Counted from the first letter of the stretch, positions 1,315 through 63,290 are shown. The stretch is DNA of 64,000 bases from an uncultured virus (IMG/VR IMGVR_UViG_3300017758_004847) (IMGVR_UViG_3300017758_004847), one strand, 5' to 3'. Notes: a model not told the origin generated them from the sequence alone. Numbers and translations: made by a program.

Positions 1315-1848
1315 TCATATGACTGATTTATCTTTACTATTATACGTATCGAAGAATATCTGTAGAGTCTTTCTTACTTTGGAACCTTTCCTTACTATAG
1401 TGGTTGAATGATCTATACCACCTACTTGTAGAACTCCTTTATTTCTACTTGGTATTAGAGTATTTATTTCATCATTATCATTATATAGAAATAACCCCCC
1501 ATTTTGATAATTCCATGTATCGTTCATATAAATGGTTAGTCCCGCAGAATGATTCTCATCTGTATGCCAAGGTATATAACTTCCTTCTGACCAATAGTAG
1601 AACATCATTCCTTTTATGACATTCTTATTTAAAGGTTCTATATCATATAGTTCTAAATTCTTTTTTACTATACCTTGTATGTTCTTACATGTTATAGGGT
1701 GAATATGTACAGGTTTACTATTACCTCTTATGTTTTCCCCCCATATTCCATTCTCCATATAATCCCCCGATTCATACGCTTTATCACATACCTCTTTAAC
1801 AAAGTAAAAATCAGGTTCTCTTAATATGGTATTTAATATCTTAATCAT
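1315..1848 (-). CDS. 2OG-Fe(II) oxygenase (prolyl-hydroxylase-like)
   Basis: WHTD (HxD), TIYMN..W...GG, distal H (IDHS) and R (RKTLQIF). Confidence 0.85.
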   Translation of the reverse strand: MIKILNTILREPDFYFVKEVCDKAYESGDYMENGIWGENIRGNSKPVHIHPITCKNIQGIVKKNLELYDIEPLNKNVIKGMMFYYWSEGSYIPWHTDENHSAGLTIYMNDTWNYQNGGLFLYNDNDEINTLIPSRNKGVLQVGGIDHSTTIVRKGSKVRKTLQIFFDTYNSKDKSVI

Positions 1849-2198
1849 AATCTAAATATGAATAGTCCATACCCGATAAGTAAATTTAGGTTCACTATAA
1901 CAAGATTCCATTGTTTTGCAATCCATACCTGTGGTAATGATAGTACAGCTCCGACAAGATAAGTGTACGCCCCTAAACTATCGTACTTTAAAAGATAGGG
2001 ACTCATCATAATAAATGCCGTACCCATATAACCTAACCTATTACCTAATCTCTCTATAGGAGTAAGTTGTCTTTGGTGTACCAGTAATCTTAAGTAATAA
2101 CTAATCCATGTTCTTTCACACATTCTACAGGTCTTCTTATTCCTGTTCTTAAATAGGAAACTTGGTTTCTTCTTATTACATACGTTACACTTCTTCAT
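1845..2198 (-). CDS. Membrane protein with N-terminal CxxC..CxxC zinc ribbon
   Basis: CNVC and CRMC, then three hydrophobic segments including LSLPQV. Confidence 0.65.
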   Translation of the reverse strand: MKKCNVCNKKKPSFLFKNRNKKTCRMCERTWISYYLRLLVHQRQLTPIERLGNRLGYMGTAFIMMSPYLLKYDSLGAYTYLVGAVLSLPQVWIAKQWNLVIVNLNLLIGYGLFIFRL

Positions 2199-2314
2199 TA
2201 TGTCTTCCCCCGTTTTTTAGGTCTCTTAACTAAACAGTCTAAACAGATGTCTGTGATGTTTAATCCTACAGGAATGTTCTCCCCGCATCTTTTACATTTA
2301 CTTATGGTCTTCAT
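2198..2314 (-). CDS. Small zinc-ribbon protein (38 aa, not in ORF track)
   Basis: Hand translation MKTISKCKRCGENIPVGLNITDICLDCLVKRPKKRGKT; stop overlaps the next ATG. Confidence 0.55.
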   Translation of the reverse strand: MKTISKCKRCGENIPVGLNITDICLDCLVKRPKKRGKT

Positions 2315-2350
2315 ATGTCTATAGAAATACATAAAATATATATAAAAGTC

Positions 2351-2521: not shown

Positions 2522-3166
2522 TTAGATGATTGTTTTTGGTTCTTCCTTAAAGTCTATAATAGAATCTGTGATTGAGAGTTTATTATATAGATGTTTATAA
2601 ATGTCGTAACACCCCCGAGGTCCTGGATGAAGATCTATCTCATTACTATTCTTTATAACAAGACCTTCCTCATAATTCGTGGAGACTTCCATATAATCCA
2701 TATAACCCTTTAATGGTTCGGACGTTACTTCTGACCACGTTAGAAATATTGGGTCATATTGTTTGTAGAGTGTATCCTTAAGATATTTTATATACTTTAC
2801 TTCATTAGATCTTTCCCCCATAACCCATCTTTCGGTTTCTTGATCCCTAATCTCTTCCATGGTTTTGAATAATTCCTTATTCTTAAAGTGTGAACGTGAT
2901 AATGGTCTGTCTATAGTACCTGATTCAAAATCCCCATAATAACTAAGTGGTACTCTTGAACAATGTGTAAAGAAGATAACTAATCTATCCCCCGATTTGT
3001 ATGGTGGAAGATTATGTAGAGTATGAATGATCTCATTGTTGTTTAGTCCCGCCTTACCATAATTAAAAACCTCATAATGATTCTTTAGATAACGAACCCA
3101 ATGATGATGCGGTCTATACCATTTGGTCCATGAGTCCCCTGTAATAAAAAGTCTATTTGTTTTCAA
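2522..3166 (-). CDS. SGNH/GDSL-hydrolase-like protein
   Basis: ITGDSW block I, NYGKAG block II, DLHP block V. Confidence 0.7.
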   Translation of the reverse strand: MKTNRLFITGDSWTKWYRPHHHWVRYLKNHYEVFNYGKAGLNNNEIIHTLHNLPPYKSGDRLVIFFTHCSRVPLSYYGDFESGTIDRPLSRSHFKNKELFKTMEEIRDQETERWVMGERSNEVKYIKYLKDTLYKQYDPIFLTWSEVTSEPLKGYMDYMEVSTNYEEGLVIKNSNEIDLHPGPRGCYDIYKHLYNKLSITDSIIDFKEEPKTII

Positions 3167-3804: not shown

Positions 3805-3966
3805 TTATAACTTTTCAATTTCTTTAAGTACCTGATCCGCTTCAGTGTACTTCTGATCACTTTGGGACCTGTTTATTTTTGATAGTTCAAATGCCTCCCT
3901 TAATAAAGACGCATACTTCTTCTCTAACTTCTCTTTTTTACTCTTCTTTTTGAATAATCCAAACAT
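3805..3966 (-). CDS. Lacal_2735-family-like small protein (flavobacterial)
   Basis: MFGLFKKKSKKEKLEKKY..LL.EAF.LS..NRS.SD.KY.EA pattern, recognised by eye. Confidence 0.7.
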   Translation of the reverse strand: MFGLFKKKSKKEKLEKKYASLLREAFELSKINRSQSDQKYTEADQVLKEIEKL

Positions 3967-3968
3967 AT

Positions 3969-5045: not shown

Positions 5046-5278
5046 TTACTAAATTCCTTCTCGAAGAATTTTTTACCATTCTCATACCCCCATTTTCCAC
5101 TTGCACCATAATCGTACATCTTCCCCGCAAATTTAACCTGATCACCCATACGTTTACGGATCATCTCTTTGACAGCGTAAAATGGGAACTTGGATATGTT
5201 ATCCTCAGTCTTGTCTATCCAACCTTGGACATCATCGTTTAATAACTCCAATGGAGTCTTCATCTTCTTTAAACTCAT
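5042..5278 (-). CDS. Hypothetical protein
   Basis: ATGA overlaps. Confidence 0.65.
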   Translation of the reverse strand: MSLKKMKTPLELLNDDVQGWIDKTEDNISKFPFYAVKEMIRKRMGDQVKFAGKMYDYGASGKWGYENGKKFFEKEFSK

Positions 5279-5790
5279 ATTATTGTTTTTTGATTAACTA
5301 TATTGTTGGGTTTTAACCATAAAATTAAAGACATCCTCTGTCCTTGTGATAATACATTTACTTTATGTTTCACTTGAGAATCGAACATCACAACAGTTCC
5401 CTTTTCTCTACTTATACTTTTTCCTTCTACCACCAGTTCTCCACCGACATAATCTGATGAATCTGATAGTTGAATAATTAAACTTCTATACCTATCTCTA
5501 CCATCAACGTGTTCCTTGAAGAATGACCCCTCATTATATTTTAATAAATGGATCTCATTTTCTTTCTTTAGAGTCTTAACTCCCATCGGTTTAATCAAAC
5601 CAAGTAGTTTATCTCTCTGATCTTCAGTTATTTGTTCTTGAATAATAGATACTTCTGATTTCCTGAAGGATAAATCTTCATACTTTTGTTTTGTGTTATT
5701 TCTTGAAACCGCTGCAACCTCGAATGAATCGGACAATGATAGGATCCAATCGCACTCTTCATTAGAAAGTAATCCCTCAACCTCTAACAT
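5275..5790 (-). CDS. 2OG-Fe(II) oxygenase (PKHD/P4H-like)
   Basis: LLSNEEC, KY..G.FFKEHVD, QLS..SDYVGGEL, KHKV...GQRMSL. Confidence 0.88.
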   Translation of the reverse strand: MLEVEGLLSNEECDWILSLSDSFEVAAVSRNNTKQKYEDLSFRKSEVSIIQEQITEDQRDKLLGLIKPMGVKTLKKENEIHLLKYNEGSFFKEHVDGRDRYRSLIIQLSDSSDYVGGELVVEGKSISREKGTVVMFDSQVKHKVNVLSQGQRMSLILWLKPNNIVNQKTII

Positions 5791-48500: not shown

Positions 48501-51500
48501 CATTACTTGTGTTAAATGTCACCCCTGTTGTAAATTCGTTCGTATCCGTGAATGAACTTATATAACCCGCCAATGAATGGTCACCCCATCCGTATGCCGT
48601 GTTCCAATTACTATCGTTGTAACCACTTGCGGTTAGTGTCCCTGTAATTTTTGTATTTGATGTTATCTCTAAACCTGAAGTTGCGGTTGGACTTATTCTA
48701 TAGTAATTACCGTTATGTGTAAAGGTTGTGTATTTACCATTATTGGCCTGACTATAGTGGTACATATTCATACCATTACTCGAATCACCTAAATAAAGGT
48801 GTCCTGTTCCGTTAGGATACAGTTTTAAGTTTGTATCTGTAGGTGTTGATATTTGTGTTGTTGTTAGTTCACCTACTGTAATTGTGTTAGAAGTACTTGA
48901 CCCTCTATCGGTTACACTATCTAATGTATCTGTTTCTGTGAATGAGGTTAGGTATCTACCGTCTAAGTCTACCGTGTATGTATCTCCACCATTCTTAGTA
49001 AAAGTAATTATACCGTTACTTGAATTGAAAGTTGCACCTGTTGTGTGAAGTACGGTGTCTACAGCGAACCCATTTACATCGACAGTACTACCATCTGATT
49101 TGGTAAGTGTTAATGTTTGACTACTATCGTCATATGTACCACTTGTGACTGTTACGTCAGATAATGTATCTAACAATGTAACTGTAAAGGTATCACCGTC
49201 ATTTCTTGTGAAGGTTAATACCGCATTACCACTATTAAATGTTGCACCCGTCACAAACTCATCCGTATTTACTACAGATTCAGTTGAAGTAGTTAAACCT
49301 GTGACATGTCCATTATCATCAAGTAATATATCTTGTATGTAAGTTCGACCACTATTGTTAGACGAAGATGCTGCGGATATATCCTCATGTTGAGTATACG
49401 TTTCTGTAAAACTTTTCAAATATCCTTCAACCGAGTGATCACCCCATCCATATGCGGTGTCCCAATTTGATATTTTACCGTTGGTGATTCCTGCTGATGG
49501 AGATGCCATAAATACAGGATCTGATTCAGTAAACGAAGTTAGGAATCGTCCGTCAATGTCAACCGTAAAGATATCACCATCATTTCTTGTGAAGGTTAAT
49601 ATACCATCACTTGTATTAAATGTCGCACCTGTTGTAAATTCATCTGAACTCACTAATGTTTCTGTGGCGGTAGTTATACCAGTAACATGACCATTACCAT
49701 CGAGTAGTATGTCTTGAATATATGTTCTCCCACTATTGTTGGAAGAACTTGCTGCAGATATATTTGGATGTGAAGTAAGGTACCCACCTAACGAATGGTC
49801 ACCCCATCCGTATGCCGTGTTCCAATTGGATCTATCATATCCTGTGATTGATGTAGTTCCATCAAAGAAATTACCTATTTCTGTTTCAGTATAATATCTA
49901 TCATCGTGATTGTGTGATGGTAAAGATGTTAGATAACCACCTAACGAATGATCACCCCATCCATATGCGGTATTCCAATTAGATATATTAGTTGATGTAA
50001 TCCCGTGAGCTACGTGAGCGGTAAACACAGGGTCTGTTTCAGTATAACTTGTTAAGAACCTACCGTCAATATCAACAGTGAAAGTATCACCATCATTTCT
50101 TGTAAACGTAATAACACCATTTGATGTATTAAATGTTGCTCCTGTAGTAAATTCGTCCGTATTAACAACAGATTCACTTGCAGTTGTAATTCCTGTTACG
50201 TGACCATTACCATCTAATAAAATATCTTGTATATATGTTCTTCCACTATTGTTTGAAGAACTCTCTGCATTTATGTTTGGATGTGAGGTTAGGTACCCAC
50301 CTAATGAGTGATCACCCCATCCATATGCGGTGTCCCAATTTGATATTTTAGTTGTGGTAACACCAAATGCTGCATGAGCGGTAAACACAGGATCTGTTTC
50401 TGTGAATGATGTTAGGAATCTACCATCTAAATCAACTGTATATGTATCCCCACCATTCTTAGTAAAAGTAACAACACCATCACTTGTATTAAATGTTGCT
50501 CCTGTAGTATGTAGGACTGTGTCAACTGCAAACCCCGTTATATCTATTGAACCTCCGTTTGATTTATTTAATGTTAACGTTTGACTACTATCGTTATAGG
50601 TACCTCCCGTAACATTTATGTCGGTTAGAGTTGAACTGATATCAAGTGTAAAAGTGTCCCCGTCGTTCCTTACAAATGTAATTATACCACTACTACCATT
50701 AAATGTTGCACCTGTGGTGTATTCATCATTGTACGAAGTTAGATATCCCGCTACTGAATGATCTCCCCATCCATATGCTGTATCCCAATTTGATATTTTA
50801 CCGTTGGTGATTCCTGCAGAAGGGGACGCTCCAAATATAGGATCTGTTTCTGTAAACGAAGTTAAATATCTCCCATCTAAATCAACTGTCCAACTGTTTC
50901 CGTCATTACGTGTTCCTGTAACAACACCATCACTTGAATTAAATGTTGCTCCTGTTGTATAATAATTATTTGTAGCAAAACTACCAGTTTTACTTTCAAT
51001 ATCATCTAATCTATCATCATGTGATCCACTTGTTACTTCTAATGAATCTAATCTGTTCCCATGTTGCAGTAATTTTGTTTTTTGTGATCCAGTTACTGTC
51101 TCTATCAGATCTAATCTATTATTTTGGGATGTATTAGTGGTTTCAAGACTACCAGTTTTAGTTTCTAAAGAACCTACTCTTCCACTTAGAGTTGATCTCT
51201 CACTTGCATTAGATGATGTATAATCATTAAAATCTGTTCTAAGTGTGGTAACATCACTATCAGTTGCGAATGTATCATCAATACTACCCGTAAATAACTC
51301 TATTAAGTCTAATCTACCATCAACTAAATTGTAATTTGTAGTGTTTGTGATATCGATTTGTACAGAACCACTAACAACTGTCTCAGTATTTAATTTGGAT
51401 TTTACCCCACCTAAAAAATGGTTAGATCCCGTTTCAAGTGTTAAACTCCTATTTGTATCAATAGTACCACCACCTATCAAACCTTTACCACTACCAATCG

Positions 51501-53394
51501 TAATAGTTGAGTGGTCAATATGTTCATTTGCTGAAAAGTTTGTGGTTGTATCGTGATCTATCTGTATAGAACTACTAATAACCGTTTCACTATTTAGTTT
51601 ATTTTTAATAGTTGTATCAATACTACTTGTAAAACTTTCAATTGAACCGCTTGTTGCCTCTAAACTTCCTAATCTACTATTTTGATTTGTGTTGGTGGTG
51701 TCGTTTGAGGAGGTGTACGTATTTAAATCATTTCTTAATGTGGTTACATCGGCATCACTTGCAAATGTAGCATCTAAACTACCTGTAAAGAGTTCTATTG
51801 AACTTAACCTACTATTTTGTGAGGTATCGGTGGTCTCTAAACTACCTGTTTTAGTCTCAATATTATCTAGTCTATTGTTTTGAGATGTATTTGTTGTGTC
51901 AAGACTACCAGTTTTAGTTTCTAAACTATCAACTCTTCCATCTAATGTAGAAATATCTGTTGTTAAACTACCTGTTTTTGTTTCGATGGAGTCAAGTCTA
52001 CCATCATGTGAACCAGATATTGTTTCTAATTCACCTATACGTGTATTATGTGAACCTGTAGTTGATTCAATCTCATTTAATCTTAATTTAACAGAACCAC
52101 TTTCATTTTCTAAAGAACCAATACTTGAATCTATTGTGGTTAAATCATCACTATTGAGTAAACGTTTTTCTGAACCTTTTAAACCACCCTTCCATTGATT
52201 ATCCCCCGTATCATATACAAGTGATCCTGATGTTGTACCAGGCGCTTCAGTGTCTCTAACTTCAATACCCGCATTGACTGCACCACTACCATTCAATGAA
52301 ATTATATTGTCTGCGATATCTACAGTGGTAGAATCTACCTTTGTTTCAGTACCTTTTACTAAAAGGTTCCCTTTAATAGTAACGTTTGACCCTGTAAACT
52401 GAATGCCCGTCTCAACGTCACTTTGAAAACTCTCTAAATTACCAATACTCGTGGCTTGTGAACCACTATTAGTTTCTAAACTTCCTAATCTACCATCCTG
52501 TGTAGTATTTTTAGTTTCTAAACTACCAGTCTTTATTTCAATAGAGTCTAATCTACCGTCCTGTGTAGTATTTTTAGTACTAAGACTTCCCGTGCTTGTT
52601 TCTAAATTATCTAACCTACCATCAAATGACCCTGTCGTTGTATCAAAGGTACTTTTAAACGTACCAATCTCCACACCATCAACATTTCCTGTCAAACTTA
52701 TACTACCTGTGATTATTACACCATTTCCAAAAACTATTGAATTACCATCAGATGATAAAATTTTATTACCTGCAGTAATCTGTATGGGGGCATCTAATTC
52801 AATATTACCCGTACCTGAAGATGATAGTGTTATGTCACCATTTTCCGATTGTAGGGTTATAGTATCAGACCCTTCCTCTAAAATCTTGATTGATTCACCA
52901 TTATCAGTTGTAATTCTTAGTTCCGTACCTGTGGTTGAAATTACTTGTTGTCCATTAATGTATAATGATCCTGAAGATAGGTATAGGTCTCTCCATTGTT
53001 TTGAAGGTGACCCTAAATCAATTGTGTCTGTTAGTTTGGGGATTATTGATACATTTGTTACTAATTCGGTTGACGATATTGATGCTGTTGCTGTACTACT
53101 TGCAAGACTATCTAAACTTAAACCTGTGACCGCTGTAGCGGGTATATCAGTAAGTTCGGAACCATCTCCACTAAAGGAACCAGTGAACGAACCCGTCCCA
53201 ACACTCGCGGTGAATATTTCGTAACTTGATGTTAAAACGTAACTTGCGGCGTGTGATGCGCTTGTTGCTGTCTCCACCGAACCATTAATCTGTGCGGTAC
53301 CATAAATTGTACCTCCCACGGTTAAATCTCCCTGAATATCTGCTGAGGAGGAAACGGACAGGGAACCCGTTATATGTGGATCATATATTTTCAT
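42553..53394 (-). CDS. Giant repetitive tail-fibre/adhesin protein (3613 aa)
   Basis: Coiled-coil RL..LE..TGS repeats, 18 AYGWG[DN]H repeats, TGATFN..GV.TF repeats, SNNSGRTYIQDILLD repeats, HNHDDRYYTE motifs, LDG.D/FLRSD fibre motifs. Confidence 0.85.
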   Translation of the reverse strand: MKIYDPHITGSLSVSSSADIQGDLTVGGTIYGTAQINGSVETATSASHAASYVLTSSYEIFTASVGTGSFTGSFSGDGSELTDIPATAVTGLSLDSLASSTATASISSTELVTNVSIIPKLTDTIDLGSPSKQWRDLYLSSGSLYINGQQVISTTGTELRITTDNGESIKILEEGSDTITLQSENGDITLSSSGTGNIELDAPIQITAGNKILSSDGNSIVFGNGVIITGSISLTGNVDGVEIGTFKSTFDTTTGSFDGRLDNLETSTGSLSTKNTTQDGRLDSIEIKTGSLETKNTTQDGRLGSLETNSGSQATSIGNLESFQSDVETGIQFTGSNVTIKGNLLVKGTETKVDSTTVDIADNIISLNGSGAVNAGIEVRDTEAPGTTSGSLVYDTGDNQWKGGLKGSEKRLLNSDDLTTIDSSIGSLENESGSVKLRLNEIESTTGSHNTRIGELETISGSHDGRLDSIETKTGSLTTDISTLDGRVDSLETKTGSLDTTNTSQNNRLDNIETKTGSLETTDTSQNSRLSSIELFTGSLDATFASDADVTTLRNDLNTYTSSNDTTNTNQNSRLGSLEATSGSIESFTSSIDTTIKNKLNSETVISSSIQIDHDTTTNFSANEHIDHSTITIGSGKGLIGGGTIDTNRSLTLETGSNHFLGGVKSKLNTETVVSGSVQIDITNTTNYNLVDGRLDLIELFTGSIDDTFATDSDVTTLRTDFNDYTSSNASERSTLSGRVGSLETKTGSLETTNTSQNNRLDLIETVTGSQKTKLLQHGNRLDSLEVTSGSHDDRLDDIESKTGSFATNNYYTTGATFNSSDGVVTGTRNDGNSWTVDLDGRYLTSFTETDPIFGASPSAGITNGKISNWDTAYGWGDHSVAGYLTSYNDEYTTGATFNGSSGIITFVRNDGDTFTLDISSTLTDINVTGGTYNDSSQTLTLNKSNGGSIDITGFAVDTVLHTTGATFNTSDGVVTFTKNGGDTYTVDLDGRFLTSFTETDPVFTAHAAFGVTTTKISNWDTAYGWGDHSLGGYLTSHPNINAESSSNNSGRTYIQDILLDGNGHVTGITTASESVVNTDEFTTGATFNTSNGVITFTRNDGDTFTVDIDGRFLTSYTETDPVFTAHVAHGITSTNISNWNTAYGWGDHSLGGYLTSLPSHNHDDRYYTETEIGNFFDGTTSITGYDRSNWNTAYGWGDHSLGGYLTSHPNISAASSSNNSGRTYIQDILLDGNGHVTGITTATETLVSSDEFTTGATFNTSDGILTFTRNDGDIFTVDIDGRFLTSFTESDPVFMASPSAGITNGKISNWDTAYGWGDHSVEGYLKSFTETYTQHEDISAASSSNNSGRTYIQDILLDDNGHVTGLTTSTESVVNTDEFVTGATFNSGNAVLTFTRNDGDTFTVTLLDTLSDVTVTSGTYDDSSQTLTLTKSDGSTVDVNGFAVDTVLHTTGATFNSSNGIITFTKNGGDTYTVDLDGRYLTSFTETDTLDSVTDRGSSTSNTITVGELTTTQISTPTDTNLKLYPNGTGHLYLGDSSNGMNMYHYSQANNGKYTTFTHNGNYYRISPTATSGLEITSNTKITGTLTASGYNDSNWNTAYGWGDHSLAGYISSFTDTNEFTTGVTFNTSNGVLTFTRNNGGDTFTVDLDGRFLTSFTETDPVFTAHAAFGVTTTKISNWDTAYGWGDHSLAGYISSFTDTNEFVTGATFNTSDGKITFTRNNGGDTFNVDLDGRFLTSFTESDPIFTAHAAFGVTTTKISNWDTAYGWGDHSVAGYLTSYSETDTLSTVTARGRRTHSNGSDIWNATTPGLGEGNIHLMSVSNDHAGGAITFNASDANSAQAGIYVKSDGSYGTKMYIATTDSYATGSKTAISIDHNGLVNVTRGNNRLQVNGNRVHHAGDFTTTDVANGVTAYGWGDHSQAGYISSFTNTNEFTTGATFNTSNGVVTFTRNNGGDTFNVDLDGRYLTSFTETYTQHDNISAASSSNNSGRTYIQDILLDSNGHVTGLTTATETVTDSGNDNDIDYISGATFNSSTGVITGVGTGNAGFTVDIDGRFLPLAGGTLTGDLTIPDYINHTGDSGTKFGFSDDETFAVVSGGSVRLTINDVDATFAGNIGIGDNMGSPSHPLDVKGADTDNSTIARFYSNTGARGSFIIRNGSGVNPTTFIGTAGGSEQLSIGTNNTEAIRLDASQNTRFAGIVAVNAGKSFRLYNAASNGWGEITLNETDNKIQFNRGVQPSGDNQSDQLLGTSSKRWYQVHAGTFYGDGGNSTNWNTAYGWGDHSLAGYISSFTDTNEFVTGATFDGNTGIVTFTRNNGGDTFNVDISSTLTDINVTGGTYNDANQTLTLNKSNGGSVDVTGFAVDTVLHTTGATFNSSNGIITFTKNGGATYTVDIDGRYAETAHNHKFLLGSTANEGSGGMQNWNSQESTLDLNPTTDWYTSLRIGHGDPVSYYSNTLAIQMTGGDAGRMYIRTVANGSKQTWKKYWHDGDFSSTNISNWNTAYGWGDHSQAGYISSFTDTNEFTTGATFNSGNGVITFTRNNGGDTFTVDIDGRYLTSFTESDPVFSASAAGGISSSDITNWDAAYGWGDHSQAGYLTSSSTQSKYLRSDANDTTTGALTIGGSIDSGGTDMGYYQSAGTNIVLKGDSVGRSGIFFESEKDGANINDPSDYGFIQFHSYGYGNTTGESAAMVIGVSNDAADKLILQAPYNGGVMIGYKDATSGVDLTLSEVIHSNASSYNDGNWNTAYGWGDHASGGYAADNSVVKLTGNQSISGTKKFSNSSLVIEGSHGTISFMDTSSEDNFYIHVNSNNFYVLADRDGSDTIDGGYETPHPLQLEGDTNTAYVFGSALNISNWNTAYGWGNHASGGYLTSLPSHNHDDRYYTESEMKTYFDRGYIDSFSQSNLAVGWYTIATNTGDRALGEFQIWDTASSDHQSVLFSASHHFGTDTSNDITVTANSRYSGTNFRYIRIKDHDTYAGAALQVYVDADSNSVYAAIVGGNAQTAGWVLKNWVADASDPGDVSNWSSFGERAKVDLDLTVNGGIITTGEIYAGSQTTQNKVYHSGNFTDSSTNWNTAYGWGDHSVAGYITSPDGGNATTLDTLDSTQFLRSDTADTFTGTITMGTQHALVANNYGRGVYGLYSSTKYQHVWSMGTAYNLSDDGSTSGNLYGISFTHTNVGGQSKSGLDHQMLIMRNGTTVSAIGAGIWTDGTITTTSHGNSSQWNTAYGWGDHSVAGYTSNTGTLTDTNDRNYITDSRGSARAPSYYDDRYAQWDFQNTSDTGVGGDGWHSLLTVSKWASFDASHRQEQLIFSGDHLWRRTATSDSAWGTNKKIWDSGNLTNNSSNWDTAYGWGNHASGGYLSTSGKAADSNLLDGIDLHTGRNNEANKVVRTDVNGYIQAGWINTTSGDNGTNSISRIYASGDGYIRYYSPTNFINTLGIVTTTGYNKSNWDTAYGWGDHSQAGYITSSASNPYQETTVTYTAAQINNGFGGNGTTIISAPGSGKFVVIYETSYLIKNNFRHSGASAIELRQPGSPGAVTISKLPYSNWQQASSAGGDVIYERDVPINGRTYGNNLATTIHRTSGTIGSGFNSISIKIRYRVFDSSNF

Positions 53395-53448: not shown

Positions 53449-53655
53449 TTAAATTTTGGTGTGTTTACTACCGATTTTATTCCAAAATCTTTCAAAACCG
53501 AAGTATCCTAATGTTTTAATTACTGTATCGGCACCTCCGATCGCCAAACCAAATTGGAAATTACCACTTATATACCAACCGATACCTATTGTTATTGTGG
53601 TTGCGATAACTCTCCATATGAATGTTTTTATTAGCGTCTCTTTAATTGTTACCAT
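53449..53655 (-). CDS. DUF2061-family membrane protein
   Basis: KT..WR.IAT..T......G.....AIG......K...Y...ER.W. Confidence 0.85.
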   Translation of the reverse strand: MVTIKETLIKTFIWRVIATTITIGIGWYISGNFQFGLAIGGADTVIKTLGYFGFERFWNKIGSKHTKI

Positions 53656-53977
53656 CCCTAATTTTTGTTCCTGATATTTCTTTTATGTCTTCAGGGGGAA
53701 AATGTTCAATAACCTCGTATCCAACACCTCTACCATAATTTATAGATTCTATGTCTGGTATGATAGAAATATGTAATTTATCTGTATTATCCTTAATAAA
53801 AGGTACTTCCATTAGACTCATCATTACTTCATGAGCACTCTTAGGATTATTTGGACCAACTTCAACGTCCCTAATTGCAATCCAAACCTTATTACCTTTG
53901 TCTAATTGTTGTCTAATCAACCATTCGTGTCCATTATGCCATGTCTGCCATCGGCCGATATATAAATTATACTTCAT
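53642..53977 (-). CDS. HxGH-type nucleotidyltransferase (cytidylyltransferase-like)
   Basis: IGRWQTWHNGH, YGRGVGY, ISGTKIR. Confidence 0.8.
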   Translation of the reverse strand: MKYNLYIGRWQTWHNGHEWLIRQQLDKGNKVWIAIRDVEVGPNNPKSAHEVMMSLMEVPFIKDNTDKLHISIIPDIESINYGRGVGYEVIEHFPPEDIKEISGTKIRDGNN

Positions 53978-54437
53978 AAATTTTATTTTTTAATGTTGTT
54001 AATATTTCTACTATAGATTCTTCGGGTGTGACATCTGTAGTATCCATGTTTATAAAATTATCTTTGGGTGATTGATAGTCATCTGACTTAAAATGGTCCC
54101 TTTCTCTTTTTTCAGAAGTGTGTACATATATTTCAACTATCTTATTACCTAATAATTTTTTAAATTGTTCTCTTTGGTCTATATATGGTGAAACTAATGA
54201 TACAATAGTATCATCACCCTTAGTTTGTAGATAATGTGATATTTTTTGTACTATATCAACGTTATATCTACGTCCTTTCTCACTATAGTCTTTGTTTTGG
54301 AATAATTCCCTTACATTATCCCCATCTAATTGTTCTACTTTATAAGTAAACATCCTATCTCTTTCTAATTCTTTCTTTAGGAGATTTGATAGTGTAGTTT
54401 TACCTGAACCAGGTTGTCCTGTGAACCAATATATCAT
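53967..54437 (-). CDS. cysC: Adenylylsulfate (APS) kinase
   Basis: WFTGQPGSGKTT, LDGDNVR, YS..GR..N, VSPY...R. Confidence 0.9.
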   Translation of the reverse strand: MIYWFTGQPGSGKTTLSNLLKKELERDRMFTYKVEQLDGDNVRELFQNKDYSEKGRRYNVDIVQKISHYLQTKGDDTIVSLVSPYIDQREQFKKLLGNKIVEIYVHTSEKRERDHFKSDDYQSPKDNFINMDTTDVTPEESIVEILTTLKNKIYEV

Positions 54438-54438: not shown

Positions 54439-55197
54439 TTAAATTAATTTTCTTTTTTTTATTTTTTCCCCATTTAAAAATGGAATTATTACATTATTTA
54501 CAAAAAATTTGTGACCATCTTCATGTGGGTGGTGTCCACCATCACTCGGCATACCTTGAGGATAATTCTCTCTAACATATTCATAACAACCTTTTATTGG
54601 TAAATAATTATTAAAATCTATTAAATCGTATAGGTATTTTATCTCAGGATTATCAAGGAAATGTTCCCCATATTTGTTAAAGATATCCATGTATGTGGTC
54701 ATAAAATATTTAACCCCTTTTTCTTTCAGAAACCATTGAGTTAAGAGTATAGACTGTAATGTACTGACAACCGCACCGATATTTGAATGAAAATATTTAT
54801 AATGTGACTCCATAAGGGGGTGTGGATCATCTAATCCACCCCAACCAGGATTTATCAAATACCATTTTTTATCCTTAACCACATTGGTTGGGTTATGTAT
54901 TGAATTAACATGACCATTATTACCCCAATTAGAACTTTTATAATTGTTTTCACTATGAAAATCAAATCGGTCAATACCACTCCACATTATACCAACTAAA
55001 AGATCTTCAGGTTTATATTTTTCAAGTGACTCTGTAACCGCATAGATTAATTTTTTTGATATCAATCCATTACCTTGTGAACCCATACCTACATTGGTAA
55101 TATCATTCAACTCTAAACCGTAATGTTCTCCTAAAAACTTTGGCCAATTCCAATCTTCAAATGTAAAACTACATCCTGACACTACTAATCTTTTCAT
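54439..55197 (-). CDS. SGNH-like protein
   Basis: SGCSFT, NVG.GSQGN, MWSG..R, HP...GH. Confidence 0.7.
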   Translation of the reverse strand: MKRLVVSGCSFTFEDWNWPKFLGEHYGLELNDITNVGMGSQGNGLISKKLIYAVTESLEKYKPEDLLVGIMWSGIDRFDFHSENNYKSSNWGNNGHVNSIHNPTNVVKDKKWYLINPGWGGLDDPHPLMESHYKYFHSNIGAVVSTLQSILLTQWFLKEKGVKYFMTTYMDIFNKYGEHFLDNPEIKYLYDLIDFNNYLPIKGCYEYVRENYPQGMPSDGGHHPHEDGHKFFVNNVIIPFLNGEKIKKRKLI

Positions 55198-56486
55198 ATT
55201 AATCCTGTTTTAAGTTTGAAGTCGAAACCAGTTAACTCAGTATATAATTTTTCACCACCCGATATTAACGGTAAATCCAAATCAGAATATTTTGATTCAT
55301 AATACTTATGGATATTTCGAATACCCTCGTCACCAATCTCAGACCTTAATTTGTCTATGATTATTGCCTGTATTATATCGTACCACTTTAGATAACTCGT
55401 GTGTAGAAATCCATTGAAATCTTCATCAAAATAGTTTTTTACATCACCCGCATCTTTTATTACTATTTTTCTAAATTTATTATTATGAGTTTCTTCTTTG
55501 AAATTCTTAAACTTAGAAAGTTTTGTTATTGTACTTTCATCACAACAATCACACTTAAAATGTTTTTGGTTAAGGACACTTAATCTAAATGGGTATGATA
55601 TCTTAGTATAGTCAGCATTATTGTTATCGGGGTCTATCTGCATCATAGGATTATGTTCAAAAAGAACATGATCGTCTTTTTTATTAGATTTCTTATATTG
55701 GGAATTCAACATCCTAAGATGTACGTGTAACATCAACTGTTCTATATAACAAGGACCATATTCTTCTTTATCTATTTTACTTTTATTTTCTTCGTAATGT
55801 TTTAAAGTTTCTTGACAAACTTTTTGAAATGTTTCCGTGTCTTTTACAAAAACAATATTCATATTTGGTATAGATGGGAAATGTGTATTATCAAAAACTT
55901 TGTTATCTATTTTTTCCATAAGATCAAAAAATAGTTTACTGTATGTTTTATCCATATAAACAAAACTCTCTTTTGTGTCAATATCAGTGAGTGTTAATTC
56001 AGGTAATTGATTTATCGTTTTTGAAACCATTGATTTGAAAGGATAGTCACTATCATGGTCTTGTCCTTTTGGGATTCTACAAAAATAATATTTGTAGAGT
56101 TCTTCCATGATTTGATCTTTTTTATATCCATTTGGTAAGGACATATCTATGTGACTAAATAGAAAATCCTGTTGGTATGTATCAAAATCGATCTTATCAA
56201 ACATTAAAGTATCGGTATCAATGTGTAGAAATGGTTCTGTGATAGATTCATAAACTTTCAATTTTGGGATACTCCATGTGTCCATATCACTTTTCTTAAC
56301 CACGTTATAATTAAGTGTGTCATATGGTAACCCCATTTCCCTCATTTGGTCACACGCTTTCTCATCACCATAGAACGAGATATTACCATAATGTTTTTTC
56401 GCCAACAAAAGACTGAGGTATTGTACATACAATAACTCTTTCCAAATTAAATCATGTTTATCTATATATGTGTGAACTACCTTCAT
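55194..56486 (-). CDS. DUF6734-like/GT-A-type protein
   Basis: WS.PKL..Y, PFLHIDTD (DxD), N..I, IEQ. Confidence 0.65.
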   Translation of the reverse strand: MKVVHTYIDKHDLIWKELLYVQYLSLLLAKKHYGNISFYGDEKACDQMREMGLPYDTLNYNVVKKSDMDTWSIPKLKVYESITEPFLHIDTDTLMFDKIDFDTYQQDFLFSHIDMSLPNGYKKDQIMEELYKYYFCRIPKGQDHDSDYPFKSMVSKTINQLPELTLTDIDTKESFVYMDKTYSKLFFDLMEKIDNKVFDNTHFPSIPNMNIVFVKDTETFQKVCQETLKHYEENKSKIDKEEYGPCYIEQLMLHVHLRMLNSQYKKSNKKDDHVLFEHNPMMQIDPDNNNADYTKISYPFRLSVLNQKHFKCDCCDESTITKLSKFKNFKEETHNNKFRKIVIKDAGDVKNYFDEDFNGFLHTSYLKWYDIIQAIIIDKLRSEIGDEGIRNIHKYYESKYSDLDLPLISGGEKLYTELTGFDFKLKTGLI

Positions 56487-56487: not shown

Positions 56488-56607
56488 TTAATGTTTGTAA
56501 ATAAATGGGTCTCTTTTTTTCAATTCCTCCATTTTTTTCTTGAACTCCTTTTCTTTACGTTTTTTATCTTTTCGTTCTTTAAACCAACGAACTATCTTTC
56601 CAATCAT
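56488..56607 (-). CDS. Small basic protein ending RDPFIYKH (39 aa, not in ORF track)
   Basis: MIGKIVRWFKERKDKKRKEKEFKKKMEELKKRDPFIYKH. Confidence 0.65.
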   Translation of the reverse strand: MIGKIVRWFKERKDKKRKEKEFKKKMEELKKRDPFIYKH

Positions 56608-56637
56608 GTTTTAAATTTTTTTACTTTCACTATAGTA

Positions 56638-58599: not shown

Positions 58600-59763
58600 T
58601 TACTTTCTTGTATTTCCGTAATGAACGACTTTTATGTTTTTATTTGTTGTGAATGATCTCCACGGATCTAAAATCACCGAACCTTCAGGAAAATCGTAAT
58701 CGTGATCCTTACCCATGTGTGCTAATAGATAAACACCAAGTATTGGAGTTTTCAAATCAAACTGAACTGACAAACCTTGTTCTTCAATATAATGTCCTAC
58801 TAATATGGATGATGAACCGTCAACATAATTTACATTGGGTTTGTAAGCTTTACCCAATATGATTATAGGTAAATCACTCTCTTTAGATAATTCAACTAAC
58901 CTATTCGCCATATTCTTCGCTTGTACTTCTCTTGCCGACATAATAGAATCAAATAAATCATACCCTAAACCCAACTTATCTGCCATGAATCTCAGTGCAA
59001 TATTGTCTCTTGGGTGGCATCCTCCACCATCACCCATACCCGCTTTCATATACGCAGGTCCCAAAATTCTATAGGTTGACCTTTCAAGTGCACCCGTGAT
59101 AATATCAGTATTAATATTACCTGATTTTTCTGCCACGTCTTGGATCATATTAACCAAAGCTACCTTCGTTGATATGAATGTATTGTAGAATATTTTAATT
59201 CCTTCCGCCTCGTCCCATGTACCAACTTCGTATCTTGTACCATCAGTAATAAATGTTCTATAGAAGTCTAATAGAAGTTTAGCGTCCCCTGTCATAGTTC
59301 CATCTTCAGTACCTATAATAACCATCTCAGGATTTACCATGTCCCACTTAACAGTCCCCATAGCGATCAAATATGGGTTGTATATAAACCTACCATTAGG
59401 GATTAACTCAATAAACTCTCTTCTGATTGTACCAGGTAATACTGTTGATATTAAAACAACTAATTGTTCTTTAGATACGTGTTTATTTGTCTCTATTAAA
59501 ATATCTTTTACGATCTGATAATTAAAATCTTTATTGGGTAAATGTGAAGTGGGGTATCTACCATCATAATCAGGATGGTGTGGTGTTGGAACAGCGATGA
59601 ATATTAATTCACGGTCTTCACAAACCTCTTTTATTGTACTAACCATTTTAAAATTATCTGGTTTTACTTCATTGATGTCATAACCAAGTACATCGTGTTT
59701 TTCGGCCATTACCTCAGCCGCATCTTTTCCGAGTTTCCCAACCCCTATGAAACCTATTTTCAT
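58600..59763 (-). CDS. UDP-glucose/GDP-mannose dehydrogenase family
   Basis: IGVGKLG, IAVPTP, STV.PGT, AE..K...N, GGGCHPRD, AYKP. Confidence 0.9.
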   Translation of the reverse strand: MKIGFIGVGKLGKDAAEVMAEKHDVLGYDINEVKPDNFKMVSTIKEVCEDRELIFIAVPTPHHPDYDGRYPTSHLPNKDFNYQIVKDILIETNKHVSKEQLVVLISTVLPGTIRREFIELIPNGRFIYNPYLIAMGTVKWDMVNPEMVIIGTEDGTMTGDAKLLLDFYRTFITDGTRYEVGTWDEAEGIKIFYNTFISTKVALVNMIQDVAEKSGNINTDIITGALERSTYRILGPAYMKAGMGDGGGCHPRDNIALRFMADKLGLGYDLFDSIMSAREVQAKNMANRLVELSKESDLPIIILGKAYKPNVNYVDGSSSILVGHYIEEQGLSVQFDLKTPILGVYLLAHMGKDHDYDFPEGSVILDPWRSFTTNKNIKVVHYGNTRK

Positions 59764-60791
59764 ATCAGTTCTTTATTTTTATAATTTATTTTTCCTTTGT
59801 ATTTTTTTAAACCTAAACCCTTTGATATACAAGTCTCTCTAATTTTCAAGAACCATATCCAATGACCTGTTTCATTAAAGTGCCAATCATTTAGTTTGGA
59901 TAATTGTAAGTGGGAATAAGAACTATCTATTAAGTCCATTTCTTGTATTAATCTTTCTTTATCAACAACCAAGTTCACAAAACTTGGTATACGTTCAAAA
60001 AAATCCATTTCTAATGATAAAGGTAATTTTGTGTTTACATTACATAATTCACACACATATCTTTGTGCGGGTGTTTCAATAATTTTAATATTATCGTGTG
60101 TGTCGTCATTGACTGATATGAATTCATTAAAGTTTTTCCAAACCAATCCTTCAACATTATACTTACCAAGTATTTCACTTATTCTTTGGAATATTATTTT
60201 CTCATACTCCTTAAACCACGACTCAAAATCGTATGGTTTGTTTATTTTATAATCGTTGTTTTCTTGAAATAGTTCTCCTAACCCAAAATCGTCCCAATCG
60301 TTACTATGTCTTGAACATCTACCTGGTGATGTAATTTGTATTAATACAAATATCCTTTCGTAACTTTTATTATTAAGTATCCACTTTAGACCCTCATCTA
60401 AATCTTTAAGTATGTCTATGTTTGATTGACCTGCGGTTGCACATTGTAGAAAGTCAGTATCTAACCACTCACTTACTTTAGTTGAAAATATTTTGGAAAT
60501 TCTATATGATAAGTTGTCTTTATTTTCGGCACATTTAACAAATGGTTTTAAACTATCACCATACGTCCAACTTTCACCAACAACTAATGTAATGTCTTTC
60601 TTTCCTCTATCGGCGTAAATAATTTCTCCATTTTGTAGATCATCCCATTGGTGTATTTTCTCACACGAAAACACAAAATCCGATTCTTTTAAATCGGGTA
60701 TGAGTTCGGATGACTCCTGATAATAACTATTGTTTTTTCTCAGGTATCGTCTCTTACCATTATACTTACCTACAGGACCGTAGTCTGACAT
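59760..60791 (-). CDS. SGNH-like protein
   Basis: VGESWTYG, A.AGQSN, T.PGR, H.NE.GH. Confidence 0.6.
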   Translation of the reverse strand: MSDYGPVGKYNGKRRYLRKNNSYYQESSELIPDLKESDFVFSCEKIHQWDDLQNGEIIYADRGKKDITLVVGESWTYGDSLKPFVKCAENKDNLSYRISKIFSTKVSEWLDTDFLQCATAGQSNIDILKDLDEGLKWILNNKSYERIFVLIQITSPGRCSRHSNDWDDFGLGELFQENNDYKINKPYDFESWFKEYEKIIFQRISEILGKYNVEGLVWKNFNEFISVNDDTHDNIKIIETPAQRYVCELCNVNTKLPLSLEMDFFERIPSFVNLVVDKERLIQEMDLIDSSYSHLQLSKLNDWHFNETGHWIWFLKIRETCISKGLGLKKYKGKINYKNKELI

Positions 60792-60861
60792 ATACTAAAT
60801 CTTAAATAAACCATTATTACTGATAAAGTATGATTTTTTTGGGTTTAAGTAAAGTATATTT

Positions 60862-61875
60862 TCAAATAAGGTATCCGTTTATGGATTTTTCAATTACCTC
60901 GTAAATTTTATCTATTCTTCCCCATTTATTTGTAATTTGATCATAGGATGTGTCACACCAATCGGTTAGATGAGAAATATCTTTATTGTGATATTTTTTG
61001 TAGTATTGTTTTGTCTTTTCTAACATATTGGGAGCGGAAAGTAAGATAAATTTCTTATTCATCTGAACACACTTAGTTGTTTTTTCGGTAATGAAATGTC
61101 TATCGTGATTGATATCACTTTCCAACACCACAACAAACTCAACTAAATCATATGGTGTTGAATCATATCTACGTGTATGTGAAACTTTAAAATCAAAGGT
61201 GTCTACATCTAATAATTTGTTTCCTCCCATTTTCAAAATACCCTCTTTAACTCTTAACTTCTGTTCTATTGGTGAATCTGACATAAAATAATCATAGACA
61301 GTCTCATTTGTAAATGATGAAAGGGGTTCGAACCCAAAGTAGGATATATGACCATATTTATGAAGGTCATTACCAAAAATTAAACCCGTAATTGCTGTTC
61401 TAAAATCTTTTGATTTACCACCCAACATTAGAAATTTTTTTCTGTCGAGATCTTTGTGTTGAATTTTAATTGGCACGTAATAATCCTCGTATTTGACAAA
61501 AAATTGCTCGACAATCAATGTTACTCCCTTATCTCTAAGGTTATAAAATTTTTTTTCATAATTATTTGTTGGTCCGTTTGTGAGAATCGTAAGTGTTGAT
61601 AGATTGTCATGTATTTGTATTCTATCAATAAAATTTTCGGATATCAACTCTGTTGTTGAATCGTAATATATCTTTTTATTATTCTCCTTAGAATATACTA
61701 TAAGTTCAACAAAATCATTGTAGAATTTGTCATAAAGTGCATCATAATTAGTGAGTAAGATTATTTCACAATTCTCTATCGTATTAACGATATTTTTGGG
61801 TCGTAATATCGACAAGTTTTCGTCAATATAGTTGCAACTTGAATTATAGAAATATAGGGGTTCATTAATAATCAT
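60862..61875 (-). CDS. Glycosyltransferase-like hypothetical protein
   Basis: FL.L....K..R, V.ES...FITEKT.K, D.SYD. Confidence 0.55.
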   Translation of the reverse strand: MIINEPLYFYNSSCNYIDENLSILRPKNIVNTIENCEIILLTNYDALYDKFYNDFVELIVYSKENNKKIYYDSTTELISENFIDRIQIHDNLSTLTILTNGPTNNYEKKFYNLRDKGVTLIVEQFFVKYEDYYVPIKIQHKDLDRKKFLMLGGKSKDFRTAITGLIFGNDLHKYGHISYFGFEPLSSFTNETVYDYFMSDSPIEQKLRVKEGILKMGGNKLLDVDTFDFKVSHTRRYDSTPYDLVEFVVVLESDINHDRHFITEKTTKCVQMNKKFILLSAPNMLEKTKQYYKKYHNKDISHLTDWCDTSYDQITNKWGRIDKIYEVIEKSINGYLI

Positions 61876-63290
61876 ATTAAAGTCTTTGACTCTTTGTCCC
61901 CAAAATCTTCCAATTCATCTAAAAGATTGTATAATGATTCACCCTTCATTAAGATATTAAAGTTATGAATCAACGTTGGTAACATTTCTTGTGTTATTTT
62001 ATAACATTTATCCATATCCCAAGACGCTATTGTCTCCATTACCTTAATTATCTTATCCATCCTCTTGTGAAAATCAAGTTCTTCATCATAACTCTCGTCC
62101 CACCACTTGTCAAAAGTTTTAAAACCTTGTTTTCTCAAAACTTTCAATGATTGTGGGTTGCCCACCATAATAAATGGTTGTGCACAGAACATGGGTTTAT
62201 ATGTTTTCTCTGAAAAAAATACGGTTTCATGGTGTATAAGTGATTCACTCACAATATTGACAAAAGATTCTTTGTGTGCTGTTGTGTTAAAGGTGTTTGC
62301 TTTATTATTTTCAAGGTCAGGTTCATCATACCACGTATGAACACGACAATCATAATTTTCATAAAAATTAACTATGTCTTTTTTCCATTCATATACGTCG
62401 GGCACTTGTCCCTCAACCCATTGTTTGTAGAATTGTTTGTCGTCTGTGTCCGCACCACCAAGTGTTGATATGAATTTATCTTTGAATATGTCTTTACTAT
62501 TGAGTACTCCGAATAGAATCACTCTGTGTAACTTTGGGACACGATTGAAATTTAAAAAGTGGTGTGTCTTTCTTTCTGTTAATGAATGAGTAATAAATTC
62601 CTGTAATTTTTCTCTCGCCATTCTGTCGGCATTTGGGTCTGTTATGTGACCTGGATTCGTGAACCATAAATTTGATTGAAAGTATGAGTATTCTATAATC
62701 TTAAACGAATCCTTACCTATCAATCCACGTTCTTCTAATGATTTTTTTCTTTGGTCCGCAATAAAGTTAGTTGATATACCTATTAAGGAGTTTGAACTTA
62801 ACTCATACTTGTTTGATAAACGATCTAACCATATAAAATTTTTATCATCCTCACCAAAGAAACCTTCTGTTGGTTGAATAAAACATATTTTACAATTACC
62901 GTTTCTTGCGTCTTGGATTATTTTACTGGGTATGTCTATAGTTTGATATTTTTTGAATATCTCATTACTATATATAACAATGGGGTATATATAATTAACT
63001 CTAATATTTGTAATTTCATCAAGTGTATATACCTTATGTCTGTTGTAGTTGTGATCTAAAAAAACTTGTATCTGTTGACTCCTAAATAATTCAATTAGTT
63101 CCAAAAATTTAGGATCCTCACCACCTTTAATATGATACGGAAATTTTATTCCATATGTATCTTCAATAACTTTTAAGTTAGTATAATCACCAGTGTGCCA
63201 AGGATGCACATCATATTGTGCAATATTAGAGTTTGGGTATTCTCTTTTGCCGTTTCTGTAGATTAATATTTCATTGTAGACAATATTCAC
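61872..63290 (-). CDS. Glycosyltransferase-like hypothetical protein
   Basis: FLNFNR.P..HR, NIVSES, FSEKTYKP...QPFI..G, GFKTF..WWDESYD. Confidence 0.6.
   Translation of the reverse strand: MNIVYNEILIYRNGKREYPNSNIAQYDVHPWHTGDYTNLKVIEDTYGIKFPYHIKGGEDPKFLELIELFRSQQIQVFLDHNYNRHKVYTLDEITNIRVNYIYPIVIYSNEIFKKYQTIDIPSKIIQDARNGNCKICFIQPTEGFFGEDDKNFIWLDRLSNKYELSSNSLIGISTNFIADQRKKSLEERGLIGKDSFKIIEYSYFQSNLWFTNPGHITDPNADRMAREKLQEFITHSLTERKTHHFLNFNRVPKLHRVILFGVLNSKDIFKDKFISTLGGADTDDKQFYKQWVEGQVPDVYEWKKDIVNFYENYDCRVHTWYDEPDLENNKANTFNTTAHKESFVNIVSESLIHHETVFFSEKTYKPMFCAQPFIMVGNPQSLKVLRKQGFKTFDKWWDESYDEELDFHKRMDKIIKVMETIASWDMDKCYKITQEMLPTLIHNFNILMKGESLYNLLDELEDFGDKESKTLI

Follow-up and report, generated by a model that had tools for sequence, protein, structure and literature searches.

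Tailed enzymes of the window

The 64,000-nt stretch of the uncultured virus genome IMGVR_UViG_3300017758_004847 analysed here (the window, meaning the whole stretch at its full length) encodes modifying enzymes of unrelated folds that finish in a similar C-terminal tail, hereafter the tag. The tag is a short linear motif of 4-12 polar or Lys-rich disordered residues closed by two aliphatic residues and the free carboxylate, typically K-[TSNK]-[LI]-I. Selection acts on it at the level of amino acids, and it is independent of the fold, flexible and confined to one kind of gene module. Its carriers span at least five different folds and belong to a clade of uncultured T4-like jumbo phages, the hosts of which are probably Flavobacteriaceae or other Bacteroidota.

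The window has 33% GC and tightly packed genes, most of them on the minus strand. The gene calls of this analysis are crude, being the longest open reading frames (ORFs) chosen greedily (for the window, 86 ORFs of at least 50 aa without overlap), and they include spurious antisense ORFs inside fibre genes, which come out as false families and which dilute the tag signal and do not create it. The nine core tagged proteins and one variant are the following (2OG, 2-oxoglutarate; GT, glycosyltransferase).

1315..1848, minus strand: 2OG-Fe(II) oxygenase-like protein, end KDKSVI (GTC ATA TGA), PF13640 at E=4.8e-5, below the cut-off; its stop overlaps the ATG of a 34-aa ORF
2522..3166, minus strand: SGNH-like protein, end EPKTII (ATC ATC TAA), no downstream start, recognised by a GDS motif only
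5275..5790, minus strand: 2OG-Fe(II) oxygenase, end NQKTII (ATA ATA TGA, overlap), PF13640 at E=4.4e-12
32292..32816, plus strand: P-loop sulfotransferase-like protein, end NQKTFI
32813..33352, plus strand: Asp/Asn beta-hydroxylase-like protein, variant end SARVLF
54439..55197, minus strand: DUF6071/SGNH-like protein, end KKRKLI (TTA ATT TAA T ATG)
55194..56486, minus strand: DUF6734 protein of GT-A-like fold (Pfam and Foldseek), end LKTGLI
59760..60791, minus strand: SGNH-like protein with a GESWTYGDS motif, end KNKELI
60862..61875, minus strand: paralogue of the next protein, end INGYLI (CTT ATT TGA, no overlap)
61872..63290, minus strand: GT-B-fold glycosyltransferase-like protein (Foldseek), end ESKTLI

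All the C-termini quoted in a preliminary description of this DNA, namely the nine core cases, SARVLF and two looser ones (KYDLI at 28241 and FKVVI at 679), were recovered where it had placed them. The two looser proteins are probably not members, their orthologues in a syntenic phage contig (G001:C1) ending in YDIIK and LKVVL. As for the proposed fold names, Pfam supports those of the two 2OG oxygenases, the Asp/Asn hydroxylase and DUF6734, whereas the protein at 54439 matches DUF6071 below the cut-off and those at 2522, 32292, 59760, 60862 and 61872 are without a Pfam hit. NCBIfam gave no name for any tagged protein of the window, scans of IMG/VR with the single proteins 2522 and 61872 gave no match, and profile searches of PDB sequences with the GT-B-like and DUF6734 families found nothing below E = 0.2. 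By BLASTP, the tagged proteins are mutually unrelated, except for 60862 and 61872, which match in the C-terminal half (E=8e-7), and the two 2OG oxygenases (E=0.01, weak).

A Pfam scan of the window also detects MetK, ThyA, RmlC, NagB, IscA, glycosyltransferases, a carbamoyltransferase, a CHU_C protein and a 3613-aa fibre-like protein; the Rfam and tRNA scans of the window were empty. As had been described, MetK, ThyA, NagB, RmlC, IscA and the adenosine phosphosulfate (APS)-kinase-like protein (earlier called CysC) do not end in this way. G001:C1 is a 248-kb contig binned in a metagenome-assembled genome (MAG) of Flavobacteriaceae; it is syntenic with the window at protein identities of 25-92% and carries a T4-type portal, capsid (T4 gp23-like), prohead protease, terminase, sheath and gp32, together with a Por_Secre_tail protein. 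Because of this synteny and these T4-type structural genes, the window is taken as part of an uncultured T4-like jumbo phage, the host of which is probably a member of the Bacteroidota. Megablast of the window against cultured phages found no close relative, and tblastn of the GT-B-like and DUF6734 proteins against 50,697 phage records found no match. Also, C-terminal domains of type IX secretion occur on phage proteins (CHU_C at 8327-9577, minus strand, in the window; Por_Secre_tail at 16302-17036 in G001:C1), which points to a Bacteroidota host and to export of phage proteins through the type IX secretion system of that host.

Enrichment and conservation of the tag

In the window, 11 of the 86 ORFs end in [LIVFM]-I, compared with an internal frequency of 0.020 for this dipeptide (binomial p = 1.3e-6), and K-[ST]-[LIVFM]-I is found five times at a C-terminus versus five times internally in about 20,000 residues. 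Moreover, Lys makes up 17-25% of the residues at positions -3 to -7 of the tails versus 7.8% overall in window ORFs. A comparison of the window with G001:C1 shows hydrophobic-Ile ends in 11/82 versus 7/242 (Fisher p = 0.001), with only 1/24 among the ATGA-overlap genes of the latter. Likewise, 400 kb of the other contigs of the same Flavobacteriaceae MAG (28-31% GC), used as a host proxy, have 7/389 such ends, none of the seven being among its 23 ATGA-overlap genes, and a further relative, G005, has 3/146. The ends of the window are thus not at the background of AT-rich ORFs, one of the two ordinary origins considered in the preliminary description. The other, the ATATGA stop-start overlap, accounts for six of the nine window cases and does not remove the wider signal. 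In a set of 774 ORFs from the IMG/VR loci fetched with the DUF6734 family, hydrophobic-Ile ends are found in 43/488 uncoupled ORFs (2.2% internally), 23/107 with an ATGA overlap, 12/47 with TAATG and 13/132 with a near start. The last codon of the tagged uncoupled ORFs is ATT in 23, ATA in 15 and ATC in five (internal usage 42/43/15%), and TTA, TTG, CTA, CTT and CTC are all used for Leu at -2.

Within families, the tail is frequently kept. Full-length homologues of the SGNH-like protein at 2522 end in KTVI (87% and 84% identity), KTII (82%) and NKII (54%), two of the six hits of this search being truncated or chimeric. One of its homologues, P0006, is identical over the first ~100 residues and then continues with the C-terminus of the DUF6435 protein of 3805-3993, so that it may represent a deletion variant within the population or a chimeric assembly. 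For the 2OG oxygenase at 5275, homologues in two other jumbo-phage contigs end in KKQNLI (G003) and GKQNLI (G004), and tblastn matches in cultured phages mostly end near residue 158-160 of 171, one reaching 167. The sulfotransferase-like protein has homologues at 51-52% identity ending in NRTLI and EKTLL, and its G003 homologue (33% identity) keeps FNKKLI despite a deletion of 15 residues directly before the tail. Also, six of the seven members of the family of 54439 end in [LIVFMY][ILV], the G001:C1 orthologue of 54439 ends in KQNLI, the orthologue of 59760 in locus L001 ends in NKNKELI, and an Asp_Arg_Hydrox protein in locus L035 ends in ATPKFI.

The GT-B-like family of 61872 has 8175 hits in the representative library, and among its best 150 representatives the end is Ile in 55, hydrophobic-Ile in 50 and [LIVFMY][ILV] in 60. 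In 62 ends of this family with two hydrophobic residues, the last one is Ile in 51 versus Leu in seven, and the penultimate is Leu in 40 versus Ile in 12, with Leu and Ile about equally common overall in these proteins. This positional preference would fit a stereospecific pocket better than general hydrophobicity. For DUF6734, a word-indexed search gave 142 hits; in the best 120, the last residue is Ile in 36 and Leu in 18. The end of the core (…LTGFKF) is recognisable in 112, of which 43 stop within three residues and 69 are extended by 4-12 residues, 63 of these 69 extensions having two hydrophobic residues at the end. These tails are mostly rich in Ser, Thr and Asn and not basic. In the IMG/VR loci they use the codons ATT, ATC, CTT or GTC, and in at least ten loci they are followed by tRNA-like sequence (GCGGGAGTAGCTCA…) or a spacer. 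Since the codons vary and the DUF6734 tails precede tRNA-like sequence or spacers, the tail is not a DNA motif.

The preliminary description had asked whether cellular homologues are without the tail, and for the strict motif this is the case. Among 22 MAG loci with the GT-B-like family, two were unreadable in the frame walk and one (L037) was set aside for being the phage contig itself, its copy ending in PKTLI; the 19 readable bacterial ORFs have no hydrophobic-Ile end. Cellular DUF6734 was matched in 14 of 401 genomes, and 17 of 20 places were read (one with internal stops and two fragments were left out); in these Bacteroidota ORFs, one of which runs off its locus, the hydrophobic-Ile end is found in 0/17. 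Looser hydrophobic pairs do occur there, as discussed below. Two cyanophage loci gave 0/24 tagged genes, including seven annotated as 2OG oxygenase or matched by a 2OG query.

In the AlphaFold2 models, the confidence (predicted local distance difference test, pLDDT) is 92 for DUF6734, with the last ten residues averaging 70 and residues 428-430 below 50, and 95 for 61872, which falls below 50 over residues 467-472, beyond a last helix that ends at 461. In Foldseek, the first comes out near GT-A enzymes (glycogenin, GT6 and MNT2; weak, TM-score about 0.3) and the second among GT-B enzymes (TM-score about 0.4). As both models have low-pLDDT ends, the same flexible tail is predicted on two different folds. 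The conclusion that the tail is selected as protein rests on its conservation with varied codons, its disorder in two models, its background level in the controls and its clustering elsewhere, to which we turn now.

Tag-rich gene modules and their neighbours

Tagged ORFs are also frequent in three jumbo-phage contigs, with 10/98 in G002, 19/262 in G003 and 23/268 in G004 (p = 3.5e-5 to 7.5e-9), where they cluster on accessory enzymes, including glycosyltransferases and SGNH-like proteins. G003 has 251 kb; G004 has 245 kb, is 86% complete and belongs to a different lineage with only 44-56 genes common with the others. The tagged ends occur in runs of neighbouring genes, ten of them within 221-235 kb of G003, and 13 [LIVFMY][ILV] ends, ten being hydrophobic-Ile, within 53.7-71.3 kb of G004. 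The G003 run and the window features that correspond to such modules or adjoin them are listed here.

G003, 221-235 kb: ten tagged ends, TTKLI, EKTLI, KQNLI, NKNKLI, VKTLI, KNTLI, EKTLI, NKKLI, EYKLI and RPLI
Window 29862..32189, minus strand: untagged CBM_4_9 + HINT protein, the window member of a virus-only family of ~500 aa and a candidate substrate or partner
Window 42553..53394, minus strand: the 3613-aa fibre-like protein, adjoining the tagged cluster (Thr 14.6%, Ser 11.7%, Gly 11.8%)
Window 53449..54437, minus strand: untagged trio of a DUF2061-like membrane protein, a 111-aa protein and an APS-kinase-like protein, beside tagged genes

The ten G003 carriers are four 2OG-FeII_Oxy_3 proteins, a SET-domain protein, a sulfotransferase-like protein, a radical S-adenosylmethionine (SAM) enzyme and three unknowns, so that a K-[TSN]-L-I ending appears on at least five folds within one 14-kb gene run. 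A further 2OG oxygenase of this run ends in KTIL. Of its five tandem radical SAM genes one is tagged, and four score above the NF033640 cut-off (N-terminal twitch class). The neighbours in the run are an APS-kinase-like, a nucleotidyltransferase-like and a DUF2061 membrane protein, a 497-aa protein and a 1438-aa fibre-like gene. Among the tagged proteins of G004 are radical SAM/SPASM enzymes, 2OG oxygenases, an epimerase-2OG fusion and a Trp halogenase (E = 7e-97). The Pfam families found on carriers are 2OG-FeII_Oxy_3, Oxy_5, PhyH, Asp_Arg_Hydrox, SET, Trp_halogenase, Radical_SAM and DUF6071. On the other hand, carbamoyltransferase (0/8), UDP-glucose dehydrogenase (0/7), GT7+LamG (0/10), epimerases, the GT2/GT4 core operon, replication proteins and structural proteins were never tagged in the sets examined.

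The tag is a property of a gene module and not of a genome. This module comprises twitch radical SAM enzymes, 2OG oxygenases, sulfotransferase-like proteins with a trio for the supply of phosphoadenosine phosphosulfate (PAPS), glycosyltransferases and SGNH-like proteins, and also a single SET methyltransferase and a single Trp halogenase. It adjoins giant fibre genes and the virus-only ~500-aa protein, whose C-terminus is Cys-rich or HINT-bearing.

Homologues of all three trio genes are present in G002, G003 and G004; the G003 homologue of the 111-aa protein is nucleotidyltransferase-like, and the DUF2061-like assignment at 53449-53655 in the window rests on likeness to the G003 copy. The APS-kinase-like and 111-aa genes of the window have no homologue in G001:C1, and the G004 trio copies have none in G001:C1 or G005. 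The DUF2061 protein (68-71 aa; window 53449-53655, minus strand; G003 227331-227540; G004 61265-61474) is 95.7% identical between G003 and G004, neighbouring genes being at 44-75% and the two phages otherwise sharing few genes.

Close homologues of the ~500-aa protein are found in the window, G002, G003, G004 and locus L024, and distant ones in G001:C1 and G005 (family coordinates L089:10955-12445, L115:14936-16435 and L074:6656-8131); NCBIfam has no name for the family. Its members share a conserved E-x-N-T-N motif in the N-terminal region; towards the C-terminus, a conserved H-N…C junction precedes a Cys/Trp/Tyr-rich peptide of ~30 aa, which in the window copy is replaced by the HINT domain (ending VHN-KLE). 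With its Cys-rich or HINT end and its many radical SAM neighbours, this protein resembles a large scaffold or precursor in a pathway of peptide tailoring; judging from its sequence, it may be a giant precursor resembling those of ribosomally synthesized and post-translationally modified peptides (RiPPs), or a self-processing scaffold. A conserved, tagged, Cys-rich (zinc-finger-like) protein of ~100 aa (G003 230566-230869, G004 56467-56773, G002 26260-26542) always lies directly beside the ~500-aa Cys-rich-ended gene.

As for the 3613-aa fibre-like protein, an NWDTAYGWGDHSxAGYI motif recurs along it, and weak Pfam matches, among them BppL_N and an SLT_beta-like stretch (29 bits), correspond probably to sugar-binding modules. 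The idea of a pseudo-substrate, with the tag motif repeated in this giant fibre, was discarded, there being no K-[TSNK]-[LIVF]-I match in its 3613 aa.

Possible roles of the tag

The preliminary description had proposed a docking or targeting signal, or else a shared degron. What stands of this proposal is a protein-level, fold-independent and flexible motif on accessory enzymes, with the housekeeping and precursor-supply enzymes devoid of it; neither a reader among the Pfam-scanned ORFs nor co-variation with phage ClpP and Clp ATPase was found. The likeliest role, which we put forward tentatively, is that of a label by which the enzymes dock to a single common partner. A pocket of this partner would receive the carboxylate and the side chains of the last two aliphatic residues, by which all tailoring enzymes would be brought to the same substrate or site, and the large domain of the ~500-aa protein would be the first candidate for reader or substrate. 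It is possible, though more doubtful, that the tag is an enzyme address code, a four-residue label that plugs any newly acquired enzyme into a common reader, which could be the large domain of the ~500-aa protein. A complex prediction for the G003 ~500-aa protein with the G003 sulfotransferase-like protein, from shallow alignments of five and six rows, gave no answer (score 0.00) and weighs neither for nor against such a contact.

Short terminal labels that dock or sort many unrelated proteins are well known in eukaryotes, and likewise for a few hubs of bacteria. In the literature searched, no paper on DUF6734 or DUF6071 and no label common to a whole set of phage tailoring enzymes was found. 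Some known systems resemble a docking label in part. The cargo-loading peptides of encapsulins and the encapsulation peptides of microcompartments are short C-terminal extensions with a GSL-type core or an amphipathic helix. As here, flexible extensions on unrelated folds serve one protein assembly; however, the tag has neither such a core nor such a helix, no encapsulin or shell gene was seen, and no encapsulin family appeared in any Pfam scan, including those of the window, the syntenic relative G001:C1 (hereafter the relative) and G003. Peroxisomal targeting signal 1 (PTS1) requires a basic residue at -2, and class I PDZ ligands follow [ST]-x-hydrophobic, with key positions 0 and -2. Both are codes at the scale of a tripeptide with a free carboxylate, and K-T-[LIF]-I fits the latter, but the tag has Leu or Ile where PTS1 requires the basic residue. 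A class I PDZ ligand is not supported, as Ser/Thr at -2 reaches 27% in the family-weighted profile, the conserved positions are 0 and -1, and the Pfam-scanned ORFs of the window, the relative and G003 gave no PDZ hit.

In RiPP pathways, one recognition element (RRE) in combination with the leader lets many tailoring enzymes act on one precursor. In the clusters described here, several radical SAM genes likewise stand with a gene for a protein whose C-terminal peptide is Cys-rich. The arrangement would be the opposite one, though, in that the enzymes would bear the peptide and the substrate or scaffold would read it, and no RRE domain was detected. The I-x-I docking motif of small heat-shock proteins has two aliphatics one residue apart; Hsp20 genes are present in the relative and in G003, but the adjacent aliphatics of the tag do not suit this spacing and the candidate was dropped. 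Finally, the tails of gp43, gp33 and gp55 that bind the T4 gp45 clamp, like bacterial beta-clamp motifs (PMC11139829), link unrelated proteins to one hub through short hydrophobic C-terminal ends. Unlike them, the tag is on tailoring enzymes and not on replication or transcription factors, and the G001:C1 polymerase is untagged. Clamp binding was rejected, this polymerase ending in SLLDFEIEK, the T4-like form and not K-x-L-I. A gp32-like single-stranded DNA-binding protein (SSB) of G001:C1 (87730-88564) ends in SDDLPF, in the style of bacterial SSB tails; these two ends show that the clamp and SSB codes differ from the tag.

If the tag is a docking code, it would give a handle on the substrate and product of a widespread uncharacterised phage module, its rule (a polar linker and an L/I-I end) would predict module genes in metagenomes, and the peptide would be portable for enzyme recruitment in Bacteroidota.

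Several observations weigh against a selected docking label. No PDZ- or TPR-type reader was found among the Pfam-scanned ORFs (86 from the window, 145 from the relative and 134 + 20 from G003). A screen for a reader by presence and absence, among G003 and G004 genes that the tag-poor relative does not have, brought up nothing beyond the tagged genes themselves, the PAPS-type trio and some unrelated structural genes. The G001:C1 orthologue of 60862 has lost the tail (DKITN) without obvious consequence. In DUF6734, the length of the extension is sharply peaked, with 45/69 at 7-8 residues, and 5/17 cellular Bacteroidota proteins end in the looser hydrophobic pairs mentioned above (SVL, QFV, GIV), so that an intramolecular or oligomeric role also fits that family. 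The 774-ORF set is biased, being centred on DUF6734 loci. Moreover, six of the nine core tags of the window end in ATA-TGA with a stop-start overlap, and virtual peptides, obtained by translating in the overlap frame the 17 bases before each of 68 non-overlapped starts, end in hydrophobic-Ile in 8/68 (including KTTFI and QTLI) and in Ile in 16/68. The window taken alone is therefore weak evidence, and on it alone the odds would be on a by-product of gene packing.

Among the alternatives to a docking label, a shared degron, in which an AAA+ protease (ClpXP of the MuA type, ClpAP or FtsH) recognises basic residues followed by a nonpolar C-terminal dipeptide and thereby gives the enzymes a short, timed life, fares best and is nonetheless unlikely. 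The MuA-type signal of ClpX is RRKKAI, a basic cluster and two apolar C-terminal residues. The likeness lies in the extreme C-terminal position, the free carboxylate, the order of basic and then two apolar residues and the occurrence on unrelated proteins. KKRKLI of the window and many GT-B-like tails (KKRLI, KRKLI, IKKLI) conform to the MuA type, but EPKTII, ESKTLI and most DUF6734 tails, which as noted are mostly Ser/Thr/Asn-rich, do not. A degron is attractive because a phage ClpP (encoded in G001:C1, G002, G003 and G005) and a Clp ATPase are present and the ATPases themselves end in TKII and TPLI, which recalls the self-degradation tag carried by ClpA. The G003 Clp ATPase (672 aa) has two AAA modules and no N-domain, with a 70% identical homologue in G001:C1, and the Clp ATPase and ClpP genes lie next to Hsp20 and KTSC genes in G003 (L081:4875-6890, L086:10509-11198) and G001:C1 (19907-21923, 136960-137635). 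Nonetheless, the number of tags is not tied to the phage Clp genes: G004 (86% complete), with neither gene, has the most tags (23/268), whereas G001:C1 has both and 7/242. This pattern of presence and absence does not support phage Clp as a dedicated reader; a host Clp might act instead. Also, it is not obvious why ten or more enzymes of the same pathway should each bear a degron. If it were a degron, the tag would time the turnover of a whole pathway, which would be rare for a phage.

It is improbable that the likeness across families is coincidental, each tip having arisen by convergence as an intramolecular lid or oligomerisation strap. Lids formed by the C-terminus are familiar from GT-A and 2OG enzymes, and the DUF6734 length peak and cellular pairs agree with such a role. 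Against it, the tails are modelled with low confidence and unpacked in both monomer predictions, K-[TSN]-L-I falls on five or more folds in the one 14-kb run, and the tail is absent from cyanophage homologues as the strict motif is from the bacterial ones.

A weak membrane tether, in which the Lys-rich stretch and the two aliphatics attach the enzymes to the inner membrane, the site of lipid-linked glycan synthesis, appears slightly more improbable still. It would agree with the Lys excess, with the several carriers that are glycosyltransferases and with the small DUF2061 membrane protein of tag-rich clusters. However, a pair of residues with a charged carboxylate anchors poorly, a neutral or acidic character is common among the tails (EPKTII, ESKTLI, TTSLI), the Leu-then-Ile order is not expected for lipid binding, and the core GT2/GT4 operon at 36.8-42.0 kb is without the tail.

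Last, the tail could be a packing by-product, with the A/T-rich start region of the downstream gene (AAAAC..TTAATATG), devoid of a Shine-Dalgarno sequence, being read in the upstream frame, or a DNA motif of cassette boundaries. The starts of the window are of Bacteroidota style, with no Shine-Dalgarno signal; among 86 genes, T stands at -1 in 47, A at -2 and -3 in 46 each, and -9 to -16 is A-rich. This context, the ATA-TGA overlaps and the virtual peptides speak for this origin, and of 22 window genes ending in NNA-TGA, the last codon is ATA in six and TTA or CTA in eight. Nevertheless, uncoupled ORFs are still tagged above the internal level, codons vary at the last two positions, tails also stand before tRNA-like sequence, and G001:C1 and the host proxy share the start style and not the tails, so that as a full explanation it is largely refuted and very improbable. 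The occurrence of a ACGGGGGA motif near three starts does not exceed what chance would give. At the junctions of the window, TAATATG and ATATGA are common, and AAT precedes ATG.

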